Source: Thermococcus kodakarensis KOD1 (lineage in GTDB: Archaea > Methanobacteriota_B > Thermococci > Thermococcales > Thermococcaceae). Taken from it: a stretch of 32,000 nt of DNA. Numbering within the stretch: the stretch's first letter is position 1; each line of letters starts with the position of its first letter. Shown one piece after another: positions 669 to 21,265 of the stretch. The notes beneath the pieces were generated by a model. It was not told the DNA's origin and ran no database searches. It saw only the letters and a program-made list of their open reading frames with translations. Location: assembly GCF_000009965.1 (NCBI RefSeq), contig NC_006624.1, forward strand, positions 1,530,001 through 1,562,000, in the 5' to 3' direction. The translations under genes were made by a program, and so were the position numbers.

Positions 669-5975
<5,307 letters not shown>

Positions 5976-6621: not shown

Positions 6622-7176
6622 ATGAGGGCGTTCATAGCGATAGACGTCAGCGACGAAGTTAGGGACAACCTTCTCAGGGCCCAGGAAAGGATAGGGAACA
6701 AGGCAGCCAAGATAAAGTTCGTCGAGAGGGAGAACTTTCACGTCACGCTCAAGTTCCTGGGCGAGATAGACGAGACGACCGCCGAGGAAGTTAAGAGGGC
6801 ACTGGCGGAGATAGCAAAGAAACACAAGAAACACCGCGTCAGGGTGAAGGGGATAGGCGTCTTCCCGAACCCGAACTACGTGAGGGTCATCTGGGCGGGA
6901 ATAGAGAACGACGAGGGGATAAAGGCGATAGCGGAGGATGTGGAGAAGGCCATGAGGAAGCTCGGCTTCAAGAAGGAGAAGGACTTCGTCGCCCACATCA
7001 CTATTGGCAGGGTGAAGTTCGTCAGGGACAAGCTTGAGCTTGCCATGGCGCTGAAAGACCTCGCCAACGAGGACTTTGGGGAGTTCGAGGTCGAGGCGAT
7101 AGAGCTGAAGAAGAGCACGCTAACGCCAAAGGGCCCGATATACGAGACGGTTGCCAGGTTTGAGCTGGCCGATTGA
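6622..7176 (+). CDS. thpR: RNA 2',3'-cyclic phosphodiesterase (2H-phosphoesterase, LigT/ThpR family)
   Basis: Two H-x-T-x motifs with the canonical spacing and context (FHVTLKFLG and AHITIGRV). Length of 184 aa is typical. The SD ggtga lies 4 nt upstream of ATG 6622. Confidence 0.9.
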
Positions 7177-7425
7177 AGCTGTAAGGGGCCTGTGGACATT
7201 TCTGGAGAACTTCGGTATCCTTATTGACTGATACAAATCTTTTTCTTTCGATTGCATGCCTATGCCCCCCATTATTCAGATTTTTTCTTTTGAGATATCA
7301 TAAAAGTAGACCACATCCAAGAACAATTTTTTTCATTTCAAGTTAACATAAAAAATTTAGAGAAAATGACAAAAATATTTATAAGGACAAGGATACTATA
7401 ATGAATTGAAGATAAGTTATGGAGA

Positions 7426-8835
7426 ATGAACCTAATGCAGTGGAAAATTATAGTGATAGTCATATTAGGAATGATTGTCTTGGGGGCCTCCCTCGAATTG
7501 AGCGCAGTAAATCTTGACTTCAACAATCCTCCAGCTCAGGTAATATCCCTACCTCAAGACAACGAGACCAATACAAGGGTATGCGCAAATTTTGACCCAG
7601 ATACTGCATTACGAGAAATAAATATGACAATTCAAAAGCTCACATTAGATATCACTCAAAAAGAAAACAGATTGAAAGAGATCTCTAAAGAGATAAAGAC
7701 AACACGGGATTCCAAGTTACTGAAGGAAATAGTTGAACTCCACAGGGATATTGAAGTGTCAAAAAGCAAAAGAGCATTCTATCAAAGAAAAGCAGGAAGC
7801 ACACAGATATATAGACAATACCTAAACGGCGAAAACATTGGAGTAACAAGTGCTGAATTAAACAAATATAAGAAGACCATGCCTAACTTCAAAGACGTAA
7901 GGAACCCTGAGGACGCTATAATAAAGCTTTCAATTATGGGTGAAATGACCTTTGATAAAATAGTATTAATTGACAACAAAATAAACAGCATACTTGAAAA
8001 CATCTCTTCAGGAACTGCCATGGGAGATGACGTCATCAGCAAAGTCTTTTCATTAATGAACAATCAATCAATATTATGGAATCAGCTAAGAGCGTATGCT
8101 GCATTAAGAGATAACTTACGAGTTAGATCTTTTCTCTCAAAAAATAGCAATAGCTTAGCCATCAGTGCTAATAGCGATCACAATTGTCAGTTAAAAAGTA
8201 ACGGAAAAATAAACTGTAGAGAAATTCAAAAAGGCTACGACGAAGACTTTGACTGTTGTTTGAGCTTTTATAGACTCTTACCTGCGCTTAAAAGCTATCA
8301 GACTTACACCTTCATCAACCTCAGACCCGTAGCTGTGTGGGTTGGGATGTACAGTTCAGAATTCCCTAATAAGGATTACCACGTTGGAGATTGGTGCACT
8401 TACACTTTTCCCCCAGATAATAAAGAATCAACAATTATTAACATCTATTGGGAGACTGCCCAAGAAATAAGCAGAAACTGGGAGCTTAAAGTAAGTTCTG
8501 TTCAGATAAAGTTTTTTTACTCTGCTTTGGTATACCGGCAGGAAACACAGCGATATGAAGAGACAAACTTGATATTCCAATACGATTGTTATTTCAGCAA
8601 GGGAAGAGTCAGATGTCTACCTTCCTCGTCTTACGGAAAATATTTATTTACAAATCCTAGGACTCCTCCATACAAATACACCACTAAAATAGTTACTAAT
8701 CCATATTGGTTAGTATGCAAGTACGGAGGAAACTGCAATGGATACGGCTGTCAATATTCAAAATGGGCAAACGCACACTGTGGAGGATGCTTTGCACCAG
8801 ATAAATCCGCCAGTCAGTACTTTGCAAAATCCTGA
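7426..8835 (+). CDS. Orphan signal-anchored, coiled-coil plus Cys-rich extracellular protein (no recognisable family)
   Basis: 469-aa ORF in a markedly AT-rich stretch. The N-terminal hydrophobic segment is WKIIVIVILGMIVLGASL. A heptad-like K/E/L region (LTLDITQKENRLKEISKEIKTTRDSKLLKEIVELHRDIEV) follows. The C-terminal half is rich in aromatic residues and Cys (14 Cys counted by eye, ending AHCGGCF). Several N-x-S/T sequons are present. A TATA-like atatttataagg lies at about 7374-7386. An alternative start is ATG 7435. Confidence 0.7.
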   Translation: MNLMQWKIIVIVILGMIVLGASLELSAVNLDFNNPPAQVISLPQDNETNTRVCANFDPDTALREINMTIQKLTLDITQKENRLKEISKEIKTTRDSKLLKEIVELHRDIEVSKSKRAFYQRKAGSTQIYRQYLNGENIGVTSAELNKYKKTMPNFKDVRNPEDAIIKLSIMGEMTFDKIVLIDNKINSILENISSGTAMGDDVISKVFSLMNNQSILWNQLRAYAALRDNLRVRSFLSKNSNSLAISANSDHNCQLKSNGKINCREIQKGYDEDFDCCLSFYRLLPALKSYQTYTFINLRPVAVWVGMYSSEFPNKDYHVGDWCTYTFPPDNKESTIINIYWETAQEISRNWELKVSSVQIKFFYSALVYRQETQRYEETNLIFQYDCYFSKGRVRCLPSSSYGKYLFTNPRTPPYKYTTKIVTNPYWLVCKYGGNCNGYGCQYSKWANAHCGGCFAPDKSASQYFAKS

Positions 8836-8850
8836 GGGGGTACTATAAAA

Positions 8851-10068
8851 ATGGATCGGCGTATTCTTTTTCCCCTCATTTCCATGTTTTTGGCTTTTCT
8901 TCTGTGTTCTGACATTATATCTGCCCAAAACTGGATTTTCAAGGGAGTTGCAGTCTCGGACGAAGGTATATATGCTATGACCGAAAACAATACCCTCGTT
9001 AAGCTTACTGAAAGCCTGGAACCTCTATGGGTGGTTGAGATTCAAAAGAATGCCCATATCAAACGCCTAATTCCAGCCGACAACGGCGTTCTCCTTGTCG
9101 GCGATGTTTTAGCCAAGCTCGACGGTAACGGAACCCTGCTCTGGGCAAAGAACGTGAGCGTCCGCGACGCAAGAGTTTTGCCCGATGGAGGTATTGTCTT
9201 CACAGACGGGAAGGTCGTTGGAGTGATCGACAAAAATGGAAAACCACTCTGGACAATCAAGTTCGCAACAAGAATAGCTGAAGTCCCTCCCGGTGTGAGA
9301 ATAAACGCCCTTGCGCCGCTGGACGGCTACATCCTTGTGGCAGGAACCTACATTTTGCCCGACGATCCAAAGTCCCACCTTTTTATAGGGGCACTCTCCC
9401 GGGATGGAACCCTTATCTGGACCAAAGTTCTCAACACGGGATACTATGACTATCCAGATGTCGCCATCTCCCTTGGAAACAATGGGCTCGTTGCAGGGGT
9501 TTACGGCGGCGGGAGCGACGCTCCGTGGATAGCTGACTACTTTGCCTTAAGGGTGTCTCCCGACGGAAAAATTGAGTGGTTCAACTCCTACGCCTGCCCA
9601 AGAGAAGAGGACTGGGACAGGTTTTGGAGCATGAAAGTCCTCGGAGCGGCCTGTAACGATGACACCTGCGCTCTCGGAACAACGACCGGGACGTTTGTTA
9701 TCAACGCCGAGGGAAAACTTCTAACGGGGCTTAACTTTTCCGGAAAAGCCCTGAGAGTGGAGAACAATTCAATTCTTCTCCTCTCGAACGGGACTCTCCT
9801 AACGGTGCCGCTGAAGGGCGCTGAGTGCCGCGCGTACTCATCCAGTGTCCAGTTCAAGGAGATCACTCCAGACGTGAAGGTCGTCCCGGCGGAGTTGAAA
9901 GTGGGGGAAGCTCATCTGCAGGTGACAAAAATAAAGGAAGCCACACGGCCAGATCGCGGAATTCAGAATACTGGAGATGGAGGCCAGGCTAAAGGAGCAT
10001 ACTTTGGAGTTATCTTAGCTGTGGTCTTAATCGTCGGGATGGCTCTGGTAGCTAAGCTCAGAAAGTAA
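8851..10068 (+). CDS. Signal peptide-bearing PQQ-like beta-propeller repeat protein with C-terminal membrane anchor
   Basis: 405-aa ORF starting 15 nt after the upstream stop; the SD gaggggg overlaps that stop. The N-terminal signal is ILFPLISMFLAFLLCSDIISAQN. Motifs of the type G-(T/K)-(L/P)-(L/I)-W recur (NGTLLWAKNV, NGKPLWTIKF, DGTLIWTKVL, DGKIEWFNSY), as in BamB/PQQ-type propellers. The C-terminal TM plus basic tail is YFGVILAVVLIVGMALVAKLRK. Confidence 0.75.
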   Translation: MDRRILFPLISMFLAFLLCSDIISAQNWIFKGVAVSDEGIYAMTENNTLVKLTESLEPLWVVEIQKNAHIKRLIPADNGVLLVGDVLAKLDGNGTLLWAKNVSVRDARVLPDGGIVFTDGKVVGVIDKNGKPLWTIKFATRIAEVPPGVRINALAPLDGYILVAGTYILPDDPKSHLFIGALSRDGTLIWTKVLNTGYYDYPDVAISLGNNGLVAGVYGGGSDAPWIADYFALRVSPDGKIEWFNSYACPREEDWDRFWSMKVLGAACNDDTCALGTTTGTFVINAEGKLLTGLNFSGKALRVENNSILLLSNGTLLTVPLKGAECRAYSSSVQFKEITPDVKVVPAELKVGEAHLQVTKIKEATRPDRGIQNTGDGGQAKGAYFGVILAVVLIVGMALVAKLRK

Positions 10069-10142
10069 CTCCTACTTTTCTCTCTAACTCCACCAACAAA
10101 AGCAATAAAATACCTCAATGCGAACTCCAATCAGGTGTGAGC

Positions 10143-11513
10143 ATGGAGATGGAAGAAGTAATCGCTGAAGTCCTCCAGAAAATCGTACCAACCGAGGAAG
10201 AGAGGGCCTTCGTTAAGGAACTGATAGGGGAGCTTGAGGGTATAGCGAGAGAAAAGGCGCAAGAGCTTGGCCTCGAGGTTAAGCCATACTTCGTCGGCTC
10301 CCTCGCCAAGGATACCTATCTCGCTGGAGACCACGACGTTGATCTCTTCTTGGCTTTTCCGCTCGACACACCTCTTGAAGAAGTGAGGGAGAGGGGACTG
10401 GAGCTTGGGAAGGAGATAGGGAAAACACTTGGAGAATACGAAATAGCCTACGCGGAGCATCCATACGTGAGGGCTAAATACAGGGACGTTAAAGTCGATT
10501 TAGTTCCCTGCTACGACGTGAGGGACTGGAAGGACGTAAGAACCGCCGTTGACCGCTCAATTCTCCACACAAAGTGGGTGAACGAGAACCTCAACGGAAA
10601 GAACAACGAGGTTAGACTGCTCAAACGCTTCCTCAAGGGGATAAAAGCCTACGGGAGCGAGATATACGTCCGAGGTTTTTCAGGATACCTCTCCGAGATA
10701 CTCGTGATAAAGTACGGCTCTTTTGTTGAAGTCCTCGAAAAGGCCGACTTCATACTGAGGCAAAAGGTGGTTGATCCAGCAGGCTGGCTGAAAAGGGAAC
10801 CCGAAATAGCGATGAAAACAGTAAGGAGGGAAGTTGAAGAGGACAAGCCCCTCGTTGTCATAGACCCCGTTGATCCGAGAAGGAACGTGGCCGCTAACCT
10901 GAGCTGGGAGAAGTACGGGAGGTTTTACTTCAAGGCAGACGAGTTCCTCCAAAGGCCATCGCTTGAGTTCTTCTTCCCTACGGGAAAAACTGGAGGGGAC
11001 TATCTGGCGGAGCTGAGGAGAAAGGGGACTCACCTAATAACGCTTCTCTTTGACGTTCCGGAGATGGTGGACGACCTGCTCTTCCCACAGCTGGAGAGAA
11101 GCGCGAGGGGGTTTGAGAAGGCCCTTTCGAGGGAGGGTTTTGAAGTCTTAGGGTGGAACACTGGACGGTACGGTGCTGAAAAGGCCTTCGTAATGCTCGA
11201 ACTCGACAGGGTTGAGAGGCCGAGGGTAAAAATCCACCCCGGCCCGGAGTTCTTCACGGAGAGAGGCAGGGACTTCTACAGAAAGAACGAGAGGGTATGG
11301 CTCGTTGGCAAGAGGCTCTACGCGGAGAAGAGGGTAAAGGAAAATATCATTGACGTCGTCAGAGAACTGCTTGAGAAGAACCAGGTGGCCCTTGGAAAGA
11401 ATCTGCGGGAAACTGTAAAAGGAGCAGAGATACTCGTGGACTACGTGCCGAGGCCTTTAGAGAACGAGGCCTACCTCTTCCTTAGCAGAGAGAAGGAAGG
11501 CCTTAAACATTAG
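10143..11513 (+). CDS. cca: CCA-adding enzyme (archaeal class I tRNA nucleotidyltransferase)
   Basis: The N-terminal Pol-beta nucleotidyltransferase motif is FVGSLAKDTYLAGDHDVDLFLAFP (G-S ... D-x-D). Length is about 456 aa and the overall architecture is typical of archaeal CCA enzymes. The SD aggtg at 10133-10137 favours ATG 10143; GTG 10137 and ATG 10149 are alternatives. Confidence 0.92.
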   Translation: MEMEEVIAEVLQKIVPTEEERAFVKELIGELEGIAREKAQELGLEVKPYFVGSLAKDTYLAGDHDVDLFLAFPLDTPLEEVRERGLELGKEIGKTLGEYEIAYAEHPYVRAKYRDVKVDLVPCYDVRDWKDVRTAVDRSILHTKWVNENLNGKNNEVRLLKRFLKGIKAYGSEIYVRGFSGYLSEILVIKYGSFVEVLEKADFILRQKVVDPAGWLKREPEIAMKTVRREVEEDKPLVVIDPVDPRRNVAANLSWEKYGRFYFKADEFLQRPSLEFFFPTGKTGGDYLAELRRKGTHLITLLFDVPEMVDDLLFPQLERSARGFEKALSREGFEVLGWNTGRYGAEKAFVMLELDRVERPRVKIHPGPEFFTERGRDFYRKNERVWLVGKRLYAEKRVKENIIDVVRELLEKNQVALGKNLRETVKGAEILVDYVPRPLENEAYLFLSREKEGLKH

Positions 11514-11669
11514 GGCCAAGAGGAGGTCTTTTCTTTTCGTTTCACGTTTTAGCTTCTCAAGACGGTTGAGGGCATCCTCCAATTTTGAGCAGAACTCCCA
11601 GCTGAATCCCCGCTGGAGGCAATCTATCAGCATTCCCTCGACTTTCTTATTCGACTTCTGTTTTTCCAT
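11457..11669 (-). CDS. Possible small protein (about 70 aa), unknown function, overlapping the cca 3' end
   Basis: The minus-strand ORF reads MEKQKSNKKVEGMLIDCLQRGFSWEFCSKLEDALNRLEKLKRETKRKD... An SD-like ggtggg lies 4 nt before ATG 11669, and an in-frame ATG at 11684 is an alternative. It sits 28-43 nt downstream of the GH57-like gene stop, so it could be co-transcribed. Against it: its last 57 nt overlap cca, and its K-rich part is simply the complement of the cca T-tract terminator. Confidence 0.35.
   Translation of the reverse strand: MEKQKSNKKVEGMLIDCLQRGFSWEFCSKLEDALNRLEKLKRETKRKDLLLALMFKAFLLSAKEEVGLVL
11527..11550 (+). terminator. Oligo-T terminator region after cca
   Basis: tcTTTTcTTTTcgTTTcacgTTTT begins 14 nt after the cca stop (TAG 11511-11513). 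Confidence 0.5.
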
Positions 11670-11711
11670 GTAACCCACCGTCATAAAATTAGGAGGACAA
11701 AACTTAAAAAG

Positions 11712-13448
11712 CTATCCCCTGTGCTCGCACCACTCCCGGTTCTCCCAGTGACCATGCGCCTCGCCGGGTATGTGTCCAGTATCTGCGACCGCCCATTCAA
11801 GTTTATAGTTCTCTATCAGCTCCCTGAGCGACCCCCTGAGGTCGCGCTTTCCGACGAAGAGAGCCGCTCTCGTCACGACGTTGTAGCCGCTGTTTGGAAC
11901 CTCTGGGGCTAGGGCGTCGGCCCAGGCTTTTTCGGTAGTTTCCCAGCCCTCAAGCGACGGAAGAGTGCCGAGGTTCCAGAGGTGGTAAAGCTCTCCAAAG
12001 TTCAGAAGCTTGAGGTAAGCCCCGATGAAGAGGCCCTGAAGCTCGCTCCCCTCAAAGTATTCCATGAGCTCTATGAGCGCCTTCGAAAGGACCGAGACGT
12101 TGCCAAAGGCCACGCGCGTGTCGAGGTTCTCCCAGAAGCGCGGACAGGAGTGGTTGGCCAGGAGCATGAGGTAGTAAACCCTACCAAGCTTAAGGGCCTT
12201 CTCTTCTCCGTTCGCCGGCTCAAGGACGTAGTCCAGGGAGGTGTCCATGCCAAAGTAGTCATAGTAGTCCCTGAAGAAGACCCTTGCGTAGCGGACGAGG
12301 AACTCCGCCGCTCTTTCACGGTCAGCACCGATGTCTTCAAGGGCCCTGAGGACTCCGAGCCTCACAACCCTGTTCAGCTCTTCGAAGAGCCTCGTGAAGG
12401 CAACCTTCCAGAGCTGGCTTATCTTCCTTCCGTTAACCGCCCTCGCAAAGACCTTACCGTCGGCCCTGCGGTAGCCGAGCCAGCGTGAATCGCTTGTCTT
12501 GCCGTCGAGGCTCAGATCGAAGTAGTCGCTCCAGGCAGAGTAGTCCTTGACGCCCATTTCAAAGGAGCACTCCCCATCAAGGCGCCTGAACTCTCCCGAG
12601 AGCTTCCGTCTGACGAACTCCATAGCTGAAACCCTCTCGACGCCGTTCTCTTCGAGGCCTTTCATCCAGGAAATGAACCTGTCGAGCTGTGCAGGGTTTC
12701 CGAGAAGGCTCTCCAGGTCACTTGCCGTGAAGACAAGGTAGGGGACACCAACGCTCTCCTTGTATTCGTCCCGTCTCTCCAGGGTCTTGCCGATCAAACC
12801 TAGAACATCGAGGGTGTTGAAGGCAAAGGCGTCGCTCAGCTCCCACTCCCTCCCGAAGACAAAGGAGTTCAGATAGCGGTTGCAGGAGTACTTTGCCTGA
12901 GGAAAGTCGTAGAGGAGCTGCCTCTCGTCGAGGAGGAAGACAAGCTTTCTGTCAGTTGAAGATTCAACTATTGAAGCGCTCTCGCGGGTGATAACTGCTT
13001 CGGGAAGCCAGTAGCCAACGACTGGGCGGTTCTCTATCAGGGGCGAGTAGAAGTCAAAGGAGACCTTAGCGAGTATTTCCTGCTCAAACCTGTCGAGGTG
13101 GGGCACTATAGGATGGAAGGGCGTTGTCGGGACAGCGTCAAGCTCCCGCAAAAGCTCCACTGTCTCCTCAAAGGCGCGCCTGCGGTAGTGGAGGAGCATG
13201 AGGAAAGTGAACGGCTCTATGTCAACGCTCACGCCCTTCATCCTGCCGAGGACGTCGTTTATGTACTCATAGGAGTACAACATGGCCCTCGTCCAGTTCT
13301 CGCCCTTGACGTACTCGTCGCGGATTTTAATCGAGACGGGGCTCTTACGCTCTTCATACTCAATTGGGGATTTCCCATCGCCGTCCTTGACGTAGACTAT
13401 ATCGCCGGGCTGGTAAGCGTGGAAGTGGTGGGCGTACTTCATCTCCAT
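11712..13448 (-). CDS. GH57-like glycoside hydrolase family protein (specificity unknown)
   Basis: The N-terminus MEMKYAHHFHAYQP resembles GH57 region I (H-x-H-Q-P very near the N-terminus). HPIVPH and GYWLPEAV resemble GH57 regions around the nucleophile Glu. The SD cggtga lies 4 nt upstream of ATG 13448. The ORF also extends in frame to ATG 13502, which would fit a leaderless transcript from the TATA-like box at 13526-13534. Confidence 0.6.
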   Translation of the reverse strand: MEMKYAHHFHAYQPGDIVYVKDGDGKSPIEYEERKSPVSIKIRDEYVKGENWTRAMLYSYEYINDVLGRMKGVSVDIEPFTFLMLLHYRRRAFEETVELLRELDAVPTTPFHPIVPHLDRFEQEILAKVSFDFYSPLIENRPVVGYWLPEAVITRESASIVESSTDRKLVFLLDERQLLYDFPQAKYSCNRYLNSFVFGREWELSDAFAFNTLDVLGLIGKTLERRDEYKESVGVPYLVFTASDLESLLGNPAQLDRFISWMKGLEENGVERVSAMEFVRRKLSGEFRRLDGECSFEMGVKDYSAWSDYFDLSLDGKTSDSRWLGYRRADGKVFARAVNGRKISQLWKVAFTRLFEELNRVVRLGVLRALEDIGADRERAAEFLVRYARVFFRDYYDYFGMDTSLDYVLEPANGEEKALKLGRVYYLMLLANHSCPRFWENLDTRVAFGNVSVLSKALIELMEYFEGSELQGLFIGAYLKLLNFGELYHLWNLGTLPSLEGWETTEKAWADALAPEVPNSGYNVVTRAALFVGKRDLRGSLRELIENYKLEWAVADTGHIPGEAHGHWENREWCEHRG

Positions 13449-13525
13449 TGTCTCACCGTGAGTGATACAATTCGGAAGTTTATGGGCCTTTCGGAAGTCC
13501 ATTATTACCCAGAGATGTCCGACAG

Positions 13526-19180: not shown

Positions 19181-19999
19181 CTATCCTTTTTTAGCAGCAG
19201 GATTCGCGTAGGGCGCTACAACGTTCTTCGCTCCAGCTACTACCAGTATTCTGGCCAGTCCAAGGTCATCTATTTTTCCGCATTCAACGTATATGTACTC
19301 GCCGTTTTTGGTGTAAAGCTTCGAAAACACCACCTTTATGGGGCCGTTTTGCCATTTCCCCAAATCTTCAACGACGGTAAAGTTAAGCAGTCTTATATTT
19401 TCGTTAATTTTCTCAATGATGTCCTCAATGGAACACGAACAACCGGCCTCAATTAAGCGGGGTTCAGTCTCTCCACCAAAAAGGGGTTCTGGCCAGAAGG
19501 CCCATCGTCCCTTGACGAGGGGAATGAAATAGTAGGCAATCTTAACCTCTCCACTGGATGAACTGGTACTGCCCATCTCTACCTTCTCAAGTTTGGAGTT
19601 CTCACCTGAACAGCTTCCGCGTTCATACTGGAAATAATGCCTCAAACGGGCAGTATCTCCGGGCAGGATCATCTTCACTTCCCCTCCCCATACGGAGCAT
19701 TGTGGTGTGATACCCAGTTTTCTGGTCCAGCTGCTTTTCTCACCGTTGAGAAACGGTGGGATTATCTCACTGTCCTCGGTTTCATACACGTATCCCTCGG
19801 AGAAAAAAACGAATCCCCCTCCAGAAATCCGTACTGCCGTCGTGGGCCAATTGGAAGAGTAAGGGATTGAGGAGAGGCAATCGGTGGAGAAGTTGCTTAC
19901 CGAGAGCTTACAATCGGGATTCCTTTCTGGAAGAATATGCACAAAAAAGAGCAAAGAGAAAAGAAAAACCGCAGCACCGAAAACAAACCCCCTCTTCAA
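19181..19999 (-). CDS. Hypothetical membrane-anchored/secreted protein (272 aa), TTG start, second gene of the peptidase operon
   Basis: The N-terminal hydrophobic segment is FVFGAAVFLFSLLFFVHIL. The rest is Cys-containing and Ser-rich, with no recognisable family. The only start preserving the signal segment is TTG 19999-19997. It sits 5 nt after a perfect SD GGAGGGTGAT that contains the upstream gene's TGA stop. Confidence 0.65.
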   Translation of the reverse strand: MKRGFVFGAAVFLFSLLFFVHILPERNPDCKLSVSNFSTDCLSSIPYSSNWPTTAVRISGGGFVFFSEGYVYETEDSEIIPPFLNGEKSSWTRKLGITPQCSVWGGEVKMILPGDTARLRHYFQYERGSCSGENSKLEKVEMGSTSSSSGEVKIAYYFIPLVKGRWAFWPEPLFGGETEPRLIEAGCSCSIEDIIEKINENIRLLNFTVVEDLGKWQNGPIKVVFSKLYTKNGEYIYVECGKIDDLGLARILVVAGAKNVVAPYANPAAKKG

Positions 20000-20005
20000 T
20001 TTAAA

Positions 20006-21265
20006 TCACCCTCCAGAAGTTACTGCCACGTAGGGGCATATTCCATTCCAGCACATCTTTATGGGTTTTACAGTTGTTATCATTGCGTCCACCCAGTTGC
20101 CGACCTTTATCCATCCCGCAGGTAGATCCTTCCATGTTGTGTGTACGTATATTGCTGGGACGCTTGAATCGTACCCAACAAAGGTCATTGAGTGTCCAAC
20201 AATACTGCCATTTCTAAGTCTCCAGTGAACATTCAAAAGACCCGGATGGTTCTTATCAACTTCTCCTTTAATCGCTAAGAACAGTTGATAGTCCGAAGAG
20301 TATTCACGATTCGTGGCATCGTAGCTGTAGGTTGGATGAACACTAAGATGTCCGTCGTTATAGAGTTTCATGACCTCCCAGTAAAAGTCCTCAATTCCCT
20401 TCGTTATGCCGTTTGCCTCTGTTCTACCACTACTGTCTGTTCCCATTGTAAAGTGAAGAATATCAATTATTGCTTCCCTCATATAGGCGCTTCTAAATTG
20501 GGAGTCATAATATGCAACCACCATTGATGCCGCTATTGGGGAACAGCCATCCCAGTCACCCCACGGATCTGGCGCAGGACCCACGTTGTTAGGGTATCCA
20601 ATGTTGGCGTTTCCAGTGTCAGTGGATGTCCAAGTTGGCACCCCTTCAATGATCTTTCTTGGGGAACTTTTGAGGGCATCCTTTTCCAACTTGACCCAGA
20701 GCACCTCGTTTTTCTTGGATTCTATTGAGAATCTGAATGATGCACTCGGATCGATCCTGTACTCCCTACCGGCCAAATCAACGACCGTGCCATCCTCGGT
20801 CTGAATTCCAAACATTGCCGCCCCAAGAACAACGTAGCGATAGTGCTTAATTCCTATTGTTTCCGCAATTTTGTCCAGTTGCTGGCTGACAAGCTTCCTG
20901 GCCTCGAACACCTGCATCCATCCGGGAGGCATTGTTTTTAACGCAGGTATGAACATGACGCCAACAACTTTTCCATCCTTGAGGAGGGGAACCTCATAGT
21001 AGGCGGGTCTCCCATCGGGGAAGTAAAACAGAACCAGCTTCTTCCCGATTTCTGCCCCTTTGAAGTCCATAAAGGGAAAGCTGTTAAGCTCGTTTTTTGC
21101 TAGATACAACGCCACGTTTCTGGAAACCTGCGGTAGAACTTTAGTAGAACTTTTGGCCACTTCAAGGGCAGGGTCACCGAAAACGTAGCTTTCCGTGTTA
21201 AGTAATGTCATCCCCAAAATCAAAAACATCAGCAGTATTCCCAGGCTCCTGTTCTTCAACTTCAT
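20006..21265 (-). CDS. Secreted papain-fold cysteine peptidase-like protein with long N-terminal prodomain
   Basis: The signal peptide is LGILLMFLILGMTLLNT. The C-terminal ~190 aa contain a nucleophile-type motif DWDGCSPIAASMVVAYY and a His motif GSIVGHSMTFVGYD. Their spacing and context resemble C10/C39/C47-type Cys-His peptidases (compare the G-C-x-A-T-A ... G-H-A-x-V-x-D-G-Y pattern). The N-terminal ~200 aa have PepSY-like beta-rich segments (RPAYYEVPLLKDGKVVGVMFI). GC content is lower than in the flanking genes. Confidence 0.6.
   Translation of the reverse strand: MKLKNRSLGILLMFLILGMTLLNTESYVFGDPALEVAKSSTKVLPQVSRNVALYLAKNELNSFPFMDFKGAEIGKKLVLFYFPDGRPAYYEVPLLKDGKVVGVMFIPALKTMPPGWMQVFEARKLVSQQLDKIAETIGIKHYRYVVLGAAMFGIQTEDGTVVDLAGREYRIDPSASFRFSIESKKNEVLWVKLEKDALKSSPRKIIEGVPTWTSTDTGNANIGYPNNVGPAPDPWGDWDGCSPIAASMVVAYYDSQFRSAYMREAIIDILHFTMGTDSSGRTEANGITKGIEDFYWEVMKLYNDGHLSVHPTYSYDATNREYSSDYQLFLAIKGEVDKNHPGLLNVHWRLRNGSIVGHSMTFVGYDSSVPAIYVHTTWKDLPAGWIKVGNWVDAMITTVKPIKMCWNGICPYVAVTSGG

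Follow-up and report, generated by a model that had tools for sequence, protein, structure and literature searches.

We analysed a stretch of 32,000 nucleotides from the chromosome of Thermococcus kodakarensis KOD1 (NC_006624.1, positions 1,530,001 to 1,562,000 of the forward strand; hereafter the window, in which KOD1 coordinates are numbered), with attention to the gene TK1739, which lies in the order TK1737 (a phosphoribosyltransferase, PRTase), TK1738 (thpR), TK1739, TK1740 and TK1741 (cca). The TK1739 open reading frame (ORF) occupies 7426-8835 on the plus strand and encodes 469 amino acids, as an earlier note made from the letters of this DNA had described, and its product is 100% identical to the 'hypothetical protein TK1739' of T. 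kodakarensis KOD1. On its left stands thpR (6622-7176, plus; Pfam LigT_PEase, 1.3e-38), which forms the left boundary of the insertion considered here. On its right stands TK1740 (8851-10068, plus), with a signal peptide, a probable PQQ/BamB-like β-propeller and a C-terminal transmembrane anchor (residues 385-405), followed by cca (10137-11513, plus; Pfam tRNA_NucTransf2 and CAA_C), by synteny the conserved right-hand neighbour of the TK1739-TK1740 pair. The TK1739-type protein or module is called X below, and the downstream propeller gene (TK1740 in KOD1) the partner. L-numbers label the loci or contigs of relatives, among them L001 (Pyrococcus yayanosii), L003 (a close metagenome-assembled genome, MAG) and L009 (Thermococcus indicus).

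The earlier note had reported, from counts by eye, an abrupt fall in GC just after the thpR stop at 7176, and the computed values bear this out. From 7001 to 9000, successive 500-nucleotide segments have GC fractions of 0.416, 0.356, 0.382 and 0.398, compared with 0.51-0.55 just upstream, 0.52-0.55 just downstream and a mean of 0.520 for the whole window. The AT-rich untranslated stretch noted ahead of the ORF is also present, as a spacer at 7177-7425 with 31.7% GC. TK1739 itself has a GC content of 37.6%, with fractions of 0.38, 0.36 and 0.39 at the first, second and third codon positions (GC1, GC2 and GC3). No other of the 21 ORFs has so low a GC3, the nearest value in the window being 0.50, and it compares with 0.80 for TK1737, 0.79 for thpR, 0.56 for TK1740 and 0.64 for cca; its GC1 is likewise shifted from the 0.55-0.59 of other genes. 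Both the composition and the codon usage of TK1739 deviate from those of the host, which marks it as an islet and separates it by calculation from the window background. The low-GC block stops at about 8835-9000, where TK1739 ends; the end proposed earlier, 9050, runs 200 nucleotides into the next gene.

The limits of the islet are given by L010, a close relative of KOD1 (PRTase 95% and thpR 92% identical) in which the thpR stop is followed after 16 nucleotides by the TK1740 homologue, with no X. This empty site indicates that the insertion in KOD1 comprises 7177-8835, and the compositionally foreign insertion directly after thpR that the earlier note had postulated is upheld as an insertion of one gene. 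A TGA precedes the ribosome-binding site of the partner in both the filled (KOD1) and the empty (L010) state. L011 and L012 have the order PRTase-partner-thpR-cca, again without X, and P. yayanosii and the metagenome contig L002 have PRTase-X-partner-...-thpR-cca. Altogether, X is present in KOD1, L001, L002 and L003, and the partner stands without X in L008, L010, L011 and L012, Pyrococcus sp. NA2 being among the genomes with the partner alone. Whichever the arrangement, X is either there or missing at one and the same position, immediately ahead of the resident partner gene, which amounts to a precise insertion or deletion (indel). The supposition that thpR would abut cca in relatives failed, as thpR there adjoins the TK1740 homologue instead, and the functional unit very probably includes TK1740, most of which lies outside the coordinates first assigned to it. 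Among the hallmarks of mobility, a tRNA scan of the window returned none, no flanking repeats were found around the islet (the only repeat, of 12 nucleotides, lies within the spacer), and no integrase was found near it, the neighbours being housekeeping genes by Pfam.

The true start of TK1739 is probably the second ATG, at 7435 (MQWK...), giving 466 amino acids, because orthologues begin with M(Q/K/R)WK there and a GGAG lies at 7421-7424. Residues 1-27 (7426-7506, plus) form a predicted Sec-type signal peptide ending in ...GASLELSA, with V as the next residue. Cleavage is likely, since this sole hydrophobic segment is N-terminal and a small residue precedes the predicted site (LSA in TK1739, x-N-A or x-D-A in close orthologues); no C-terminal membrane anchor was found in TK1739. 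Of the signal-anchored, helical and Cys-rich secreted protein described in the earlier note, secretion, helices (by AlphaFold) and Cys-richness stand, and the N-terminal segment is now read as a Sec signal peptide. The AlphaFold model, built on a 23-sequence alignment, has a mean predicted local distance difference test score (pLDDT) of 82 and a predicted template modelling score (pTM) of 0.83. It predicts a disordered linker at residues 22-52, followed by a coiled-coil or helical-bundle region at residues 58-242 (7597-8151, plus) with four long helices and a short one (pLDDT mostly 86-98). Residues 253-469 (8182-8832, plus) form a Cys-rich α/β C-terminal domain, delimited by AlphaFold and family alignments, with the motifs VWVGMYSS..P, WCTY.FP, YW..A, SIQIKFFY, NLIFQY.C and KWAN.HCGGCFAPD.SASQ.F. 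TK1739 has 13 cysteines, one fewer than had been counted by eye, namely C53 and 12 in residues 253-469, and aromatic residues make up 18.4% of its C-terminal half. The C452-G-G-C455 (CxxC) motif sits in a predicted β-hairpin, not at a helix N-terminus.

By sequence comparison, TK1739 represents a small, undescribed archaeal family of predicted secreted proteins. When 5.8 billion proteins were searched with a word index, 8 relatives of TK1739 came up, among them those of P. yayanosii (70% identity), Thermococcus camini (61%) and Thermococcus litoralis (47%). An exhaustive profile search of 1.84 billion cluster representatives gave 30 matches at E <= 1e-3, a few of them spurious, and a scan of metagenome contigs gave 32 loci with X. 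The five members in GTDB representative genomes are all labelled Thermococcaceae or Thermococci, and every named source of X is Thermococcales/Thermococci. The gene is no orphan, as had been thought: orthologues lie in the same neighbourhood in P. yayanosii, several Thermococcaceae MAGs and metagenome contigs, T. camini has one too, and low-GC Thermococci hold more distant ones. The C-terminal domain is common to all members, and in it V304, W305, G307, Y309, C324, F328, Y341, S358, Y365, I383, C431, W447, N449, C452, F456, A457, D459 and Q464 show no variation in a comparison of 19 diverse members, with H451 and C455 almost as constant; the tail motif of the family is W(A/C)N.HC.GCFA(P/C)D....Q.F.

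The absence of a recognisable family signature was borne out by scans of TK1739 and 23 family members against Pfam, NCBIfam, PHROGs and PADLOC, which gave nothing above noise. The best Pfam score for TK1739 was 14.6 bits against a cut-off of 27, and no family recurred over the 23 members, the commonest, OmpH, appearing in 3 with a best E-value of 0.015. A full-length profile against PDB sequences returned coiled-coil noise only (E >= 0.05), a profile of the C-terminal domain against PDB sequences gave no match at E <= 10, and a Foldseek search with the AlphaFold model against PDB and BFVD gave no match at E <= 1e-3. Profile matches to influenza HA2 (E 0.05-0.25) were rejected as compositional, being confined to the coiled-coil region. 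The viral or plasmid derivation once suggested for the gene found no link, as no relative of TK1739 was detected in the 2.9 million contigs of IMG/VR or among INPHARED phages, PLSDB plasmids, PHROGs and BFVD. Neither TK1739 nor TK1740 is mentioned in the papers that could be searched, and both are absent from the interactome supplement of PMC12016516.

X is closely associated with its partner. A PQQ-type propeller gene, whose product also has a signal peptide and a C-terminal anchor, lies 12-75 nucleotides 3' of X in 11 of the 11 distinct loci with downstream sequence. These belong to the KOD1-, L017- (T. litoralis-like) and L020-type clades, the closest three, and lie in several different neighbourhoods, with X identity falling to 36% across the three clades. 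TK1740 scores 26.7 bits against Pfam PQQ_2 (PF13360), just below the cut-off of 27.6, and the partners in L006, L019 and L017 score 59.4, 55.2 and 29.3. At the distant locus L040 the order is X1, X2, propeller. Additionally, a giant ORF on L013 (1333-9336), which encodes at least 2668 amino acids and runs off the contig, has as its N-terminus a complete X module, running from the signal peptide through the helices to the Cys-rich domain (hhalign probability 99.9%, E 2.6e-36); beyond it come an FG-GAP propeller, CARDB and Ig-like domains, a prodomain of fervidolysin type and a subtilase S8 domain. Since conserved adjacency together with domain fusion is a classical genomic signature, X appears to be functionally coupled to a propeller.

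Several observations concern the surroundings of X in other genomes. A stand-alone X paralogue (P0032) precedes the giant ORF of L013, on a contig of 46% GC. In L024, L029, L031 and L032, the genes downstream of X belong to two further secreted-protein families without annotation, of about 398 and 310 amino acids, and profile comparison detected no homology between the PQQ partner and the downstream genes of about 400 amino acids in L024, L029 and L032. The metagenome contigs L037, L039, L040, L043 and L045 (35-39% GC) have, directly downstream of full-length X genes, tandem X paralogues and truncated copies with the helical part only. The propeller gene has a GC3 of 0.46-0.62, versus 0.74-0.83 in the flanks, in every genome (KOD1, L001, L002, L010-L012), with X or not, and the partner evolves much faster (48-56% identity) than X or the flanks. 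In T. indicus, a gene for a 351-residue secreted protein (L009, 4934-5989) lies directly upstream of the propeller gene; its first 20-75 residues or so are common with X (MRWKPLFAVILGLLVV...) and the remainder is unrelated. In P. yayanosii, a 93-residue ORF downstream of the propeller gene (L001, 12842-13123) has the same signal peptide, agreeing at 15 of 19 residues. This resemblance suggests that genes in the X slot may share or swap the signal-peptide region.

The divergence of X from copy to copy points to an origin by transfer, as the earlier note had surmised. Between KOD1 and L003, differences at 4-fold sites are 0.08 for X and 0.09 for the partner, compared with 0.26 for both thpR and cca (Fisher p = 1e-5), and nucleotide identity is 96-98% over most of X (7600-8799) versus 83-94% in the flanks. 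In deeper pairs the values are 0.41-0.46 for X and 0.54-0.70 for the flanks, near saturation, so that the 4-fold divergence of X lies below that of the flanks in every pair compared. Furthermore, the X closest to that of P. yayanosii is the one of Thermococcus L002 (77%), whereas thpR and cca group KOD1 with L002 (90% and 74%) and set P. yayanosii apart (72-73% and 63-64%); with four taxa having both X and flanks, this is an argument from distances and not from topology. Most of the distant relatives of X lie beside housekeeping genes on archaeal contigs of 35-41% GC and have the composition of their host. By comparison, the seven KOD1-type X copies all have 37-41% GC and adjoin partners of 46-51% GC, with flanking genes of 53-59% GC where the flanks could be read (L001, L002, L003). 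Based on the lower 4-fold divergence, the discordant distances and the low-GC relatives, these comparisons indicate that X has been exchanged laterally among Thermococcales after the species diverged and that, in the case of KOD1 and L003, X and partner were exchanged together. T. kodakarensis is naturally competent. Given this competence and the lack of an integrase, tRNA or flanking repeat, transfer probably proceeded by homologous recombination through the conserved flanks. The ultimate source would be low-GC Thermococci, where the X family is diverse and matches its host in composition.

The spacer at 7177-7425 (plus) appears to hold the signals for both neighbouring genes. An oligo-T rule governs transcription termination in archaea, and on this basis the T-tracts at about 7238-7340 are probably the termination signals of thpR. 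A repeat scan found the direct repeat TTTTTCTTT(C/T)GA within the spacer, at 7240 and 7282, and an Rfam scan of the spacer and islet gave no match. An alignment of five upstream regions revealed the TATA-box-like TTTATAAGG at 7378-7386 (plus), preceded by an A-run resembling a B recognition element (BRE). It is conserved upstream of four of the five orthologues and occurs once in the window, and we infer that it is a promoter element of TK1739. The putative ribosome-binding site GGAG at 7421-7424 (plus), 10 nucleotides before the ATG at 7435, occurs in three of the five regions. A scan for sigma-70 promoters and terminators performed at chance level, its model being inapplicable to archaea. 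The start of TK1740 follows the stop of TK1739 after 15 nucleotides with no T-tract between them, and because of this short gap without a T-run the two genes are likely co-transcribed. Transcription of TK1739, for which the earlier note had looked to transcriptome data, is evident in supplementary file 10 of Jager et al. 2014, where its RNA-seq reads are non-zero in all five count columns and at about the same level as those of neighbouring genes, not lower; no transcription start site entry for TK1739 was found in the supplement of that study.

We consider it an even call that the product of the TK1739 islet is a secreted subunit, encoded by a mobile gene, which acts at the cell surface in concert with TK1740, the propeller anchored in the membrane. 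The islet at 7177-8835 would bring its own promoter and TK1739, placed so that the thpR stop immediately precedes it and the ribosome-binding site of TK1740 immediately follows. TK1739 would be exported through its Sec signal peptide, probably with cleavage, and the mature protein would be soluble, consisting of a long helical stalk or bundle and a compact Cys-rich domain of unmatched fold. TK1740 could then serve as the tether or working partner of the secreted protein in a two-part surface module, through physical contact, and such a module might be for recognition or attachment rather than metabolism. As X lacks an anchor and the partner has one, tethering by or cooperation with the propeller is the simplest mechanism.

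Several points weigh against this reading. Mobility genes, a tRNA and flanking repeats are all missing from the islet. Downstream of X in the L024-, L031- and L045-type clades lie other unannotated secreted proteins or tandem X copies instead of recognisable PQQ propellers. Partner identity does not track X, being 56% between KOD1 and the X-less L010 and 48% between KOD1 and the X-bearing L001, so there is no signal of co-evolution, and the occurrence of the partner without X in many genomes implies that it does not need X. The adjacency could in part reflect a permissive insertion site, and the lower synonymous divergence of X could arise from constraint on synonymous sites.

Vertical descent would explain the locus differently, X being an ancestral Thermococcales gene that was repeatedly lost and whose AT-richness came from weak codon selection and AT-biased mutation. 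Three observations fit: the neighbourhood of ribonucleotide reductase, PRTase, thpR and cca holds X in KOD1, P. yayanosii and MAGs, the protein identity of X (67-77%) is within the range of the flanking genes, and the partner and other secreted-protein genes of the window also have low GC3 (0.51-0.56). We nevertheless regard this explanation as unlikely, since the 4-fold divergence of X is below that of the flanks in each pair and three times lower between KOD1 and L003, its distances are discordant with those of thpR and cca, the shift extends to GC1, and the transcript counts of TK1739 are not below those of its neighbours. Less probable still is that TK1739 is a secreted archaeocin-like toxin and TK1740 a surface immunity protein, with orphan immunity genes in the propeller-only genomes. 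The pair does resemble toxin/immunity systems (polymorphic toxins, bacteriocins, archaeocins) in that a secreted-protein gene is followed tightly, after 15 nucleotides, by a membrane-protein gene in toxin-then-immunity order, the first gene being patchy and laterally exchanged and the second also found alone, more widespread and fast-evolving (48-56% identity). In T. indicus, moreover, the slot upstream of the propeller is taken by another secreted protein whose signal peptide is almost that of X. However, profile scans found no toxin, PADLOC or known-enzyme domain in TK1739, and the partner is large, syntenic and probably vertically inherited, without co-varying with X in the small sample available. 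Toxin domains of polymorphic toxins are normally C-terminal, whereas the X module is N-terminal in the giant propeller/subtilase surface protein of L013, and tandem X paralogues occur without extra partners.

A catalytic or redox role can be read from the C-terminal domain, where C324, N449, C452 and D459 never vary among the 19 diverse members and H451 and C455 hardly do; X would then be an extracellular enzyme or redox protein acting through C324, H451, D459, N449 and the CGGC (CxxC) motif. This is very unlikely, as neither Pfam, PDB nor Foldseek revealed similarity to a hydrolase, transglutaminase or thioredoxin family or fold, and the CxxC, unlike that of a thioredoxin-like oxidoreductase, lies in a predicted β-hairpin, where a disulfide or a metal site would be just as plausible. 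We attach almost no credence to X as a virus or plasmid remnant, in which case an envelope or fusion glycoprotein would have persisted in the chromosome. Its signal peptide, long helical hairpins and Cys-rich domain recall class I viral fusion glycoproteins of the influenza HA2 type, and its foreign composition and the weak HA2 profile matches point the same way. Those matches are not significant, though, TK1739 lacks a C-terminal membrane anchor and any significant similarity in sequence or fold, and the viral and plasmid collections searched hold no relative. The long contigs with X all carry housekeeping archaeal genes, and integrase and capsid genes were not found on them.

Among known systems, the islet is comparable to the low-GC genomic islands of Thermococcales such as PYG1-PYG10 of P. 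yayanosii (PMC5126054), having a GC content well below that of the host, a patchy distribution and signs of exchange between Thermococcales. It differs in being a single gene of 1.66 kb without integrase, tRNA target or direct repeats, and in lying, in all close relatives, exactly ahead of one given resident gene. The X locus of P. yayanosii (record positions 1277402-1298799) overlaps none of the published PYG1-PYG9 ranges (PMC5126054). TK1740 shares with PQQ/BamB-like propellers (PF13360) a signal peptide and a repeat signature (26.7 bits, 55-59 in distant partners), a likeness by repeat signature only; it differs in being archaeal, in its C-terminal transmembrane anchor and in scoring under the Pfam cut-off. 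In Staphylothermus marinus, tetrabrachion with the STABLE protease is a surface assembly in which a coiled-coil stalk carries a subtilase. The L013 fusion alone resembles it, as this assembly is generally described, by combining an extracellular helical stalk with a subtilisin-type protease, whereas TK1739 itself has no protease partner.

Elsewhere in the window, TK1742 (11507-13500, minus) is a 596-residue maltose-forming α-amylase-like gene (PSMA-like_N/C) that is absent from the otherwise collinear L003 and present in L010-L012, a second indel beside the locus. The ribonucleotide reductase ORF (705-5975, 1756 amino acids) is interrupted by inteins, and the lower-GC stretches at 501-1000 and 2001-3000 fall within it; in relatives the enzyme has Intein_splicing and LAGLIDADG_3 domains, and the L010 version is intein-free with 908 amino acids. 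The adjacent genes at 19181-21265 (minus) and 22141-22899 have a reduced GC3 of 0.51-0.52 and encode proteins with hydrophobic, signal-like N-terminal segments; of these proteins, one resembles Peptidase_C39_2 weakly and the other lacks a family assignment. The pair is followed by a DUF835 membrane protein and, together with a GC dip at 21-22.5 kb, makes up the second lowest-GC block of the window.

In summary, an islet with a surface-protein gene is of an ordinary kind, and what is new here is the family, its apparent new fold and its coupling to propellers. A bolder proposal, which we put forward tentatively and think unlikely, is that TK1739 is the founding member of a new fold and family which together with propellers forms an unrecognised mobile surface apparatus of Thermococci, with TK1740 as its membrane dock, for cell-cell recognition, aggregation, DNA exchange or inter-strain antagonism. 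As a model hyperthermophile, T. kodakarensis is amenable to genetics, and an anonymous hypothetical protein has become a defined, testable two-gene module with a natural fusion and empty-site strains. Should TK1739 and TK1740 turn out to have no measurable effect, the locus would be one more accessory ORFan islet of the usual sort. A role of the two in cell-cell contact, adhesion or antagonism would bring a further component into the surface biology of Thermococcales, of which little is known, and the locus would then also illustrate neatly how a single gene can be exchanged laterally at one constant place in the chromosome.

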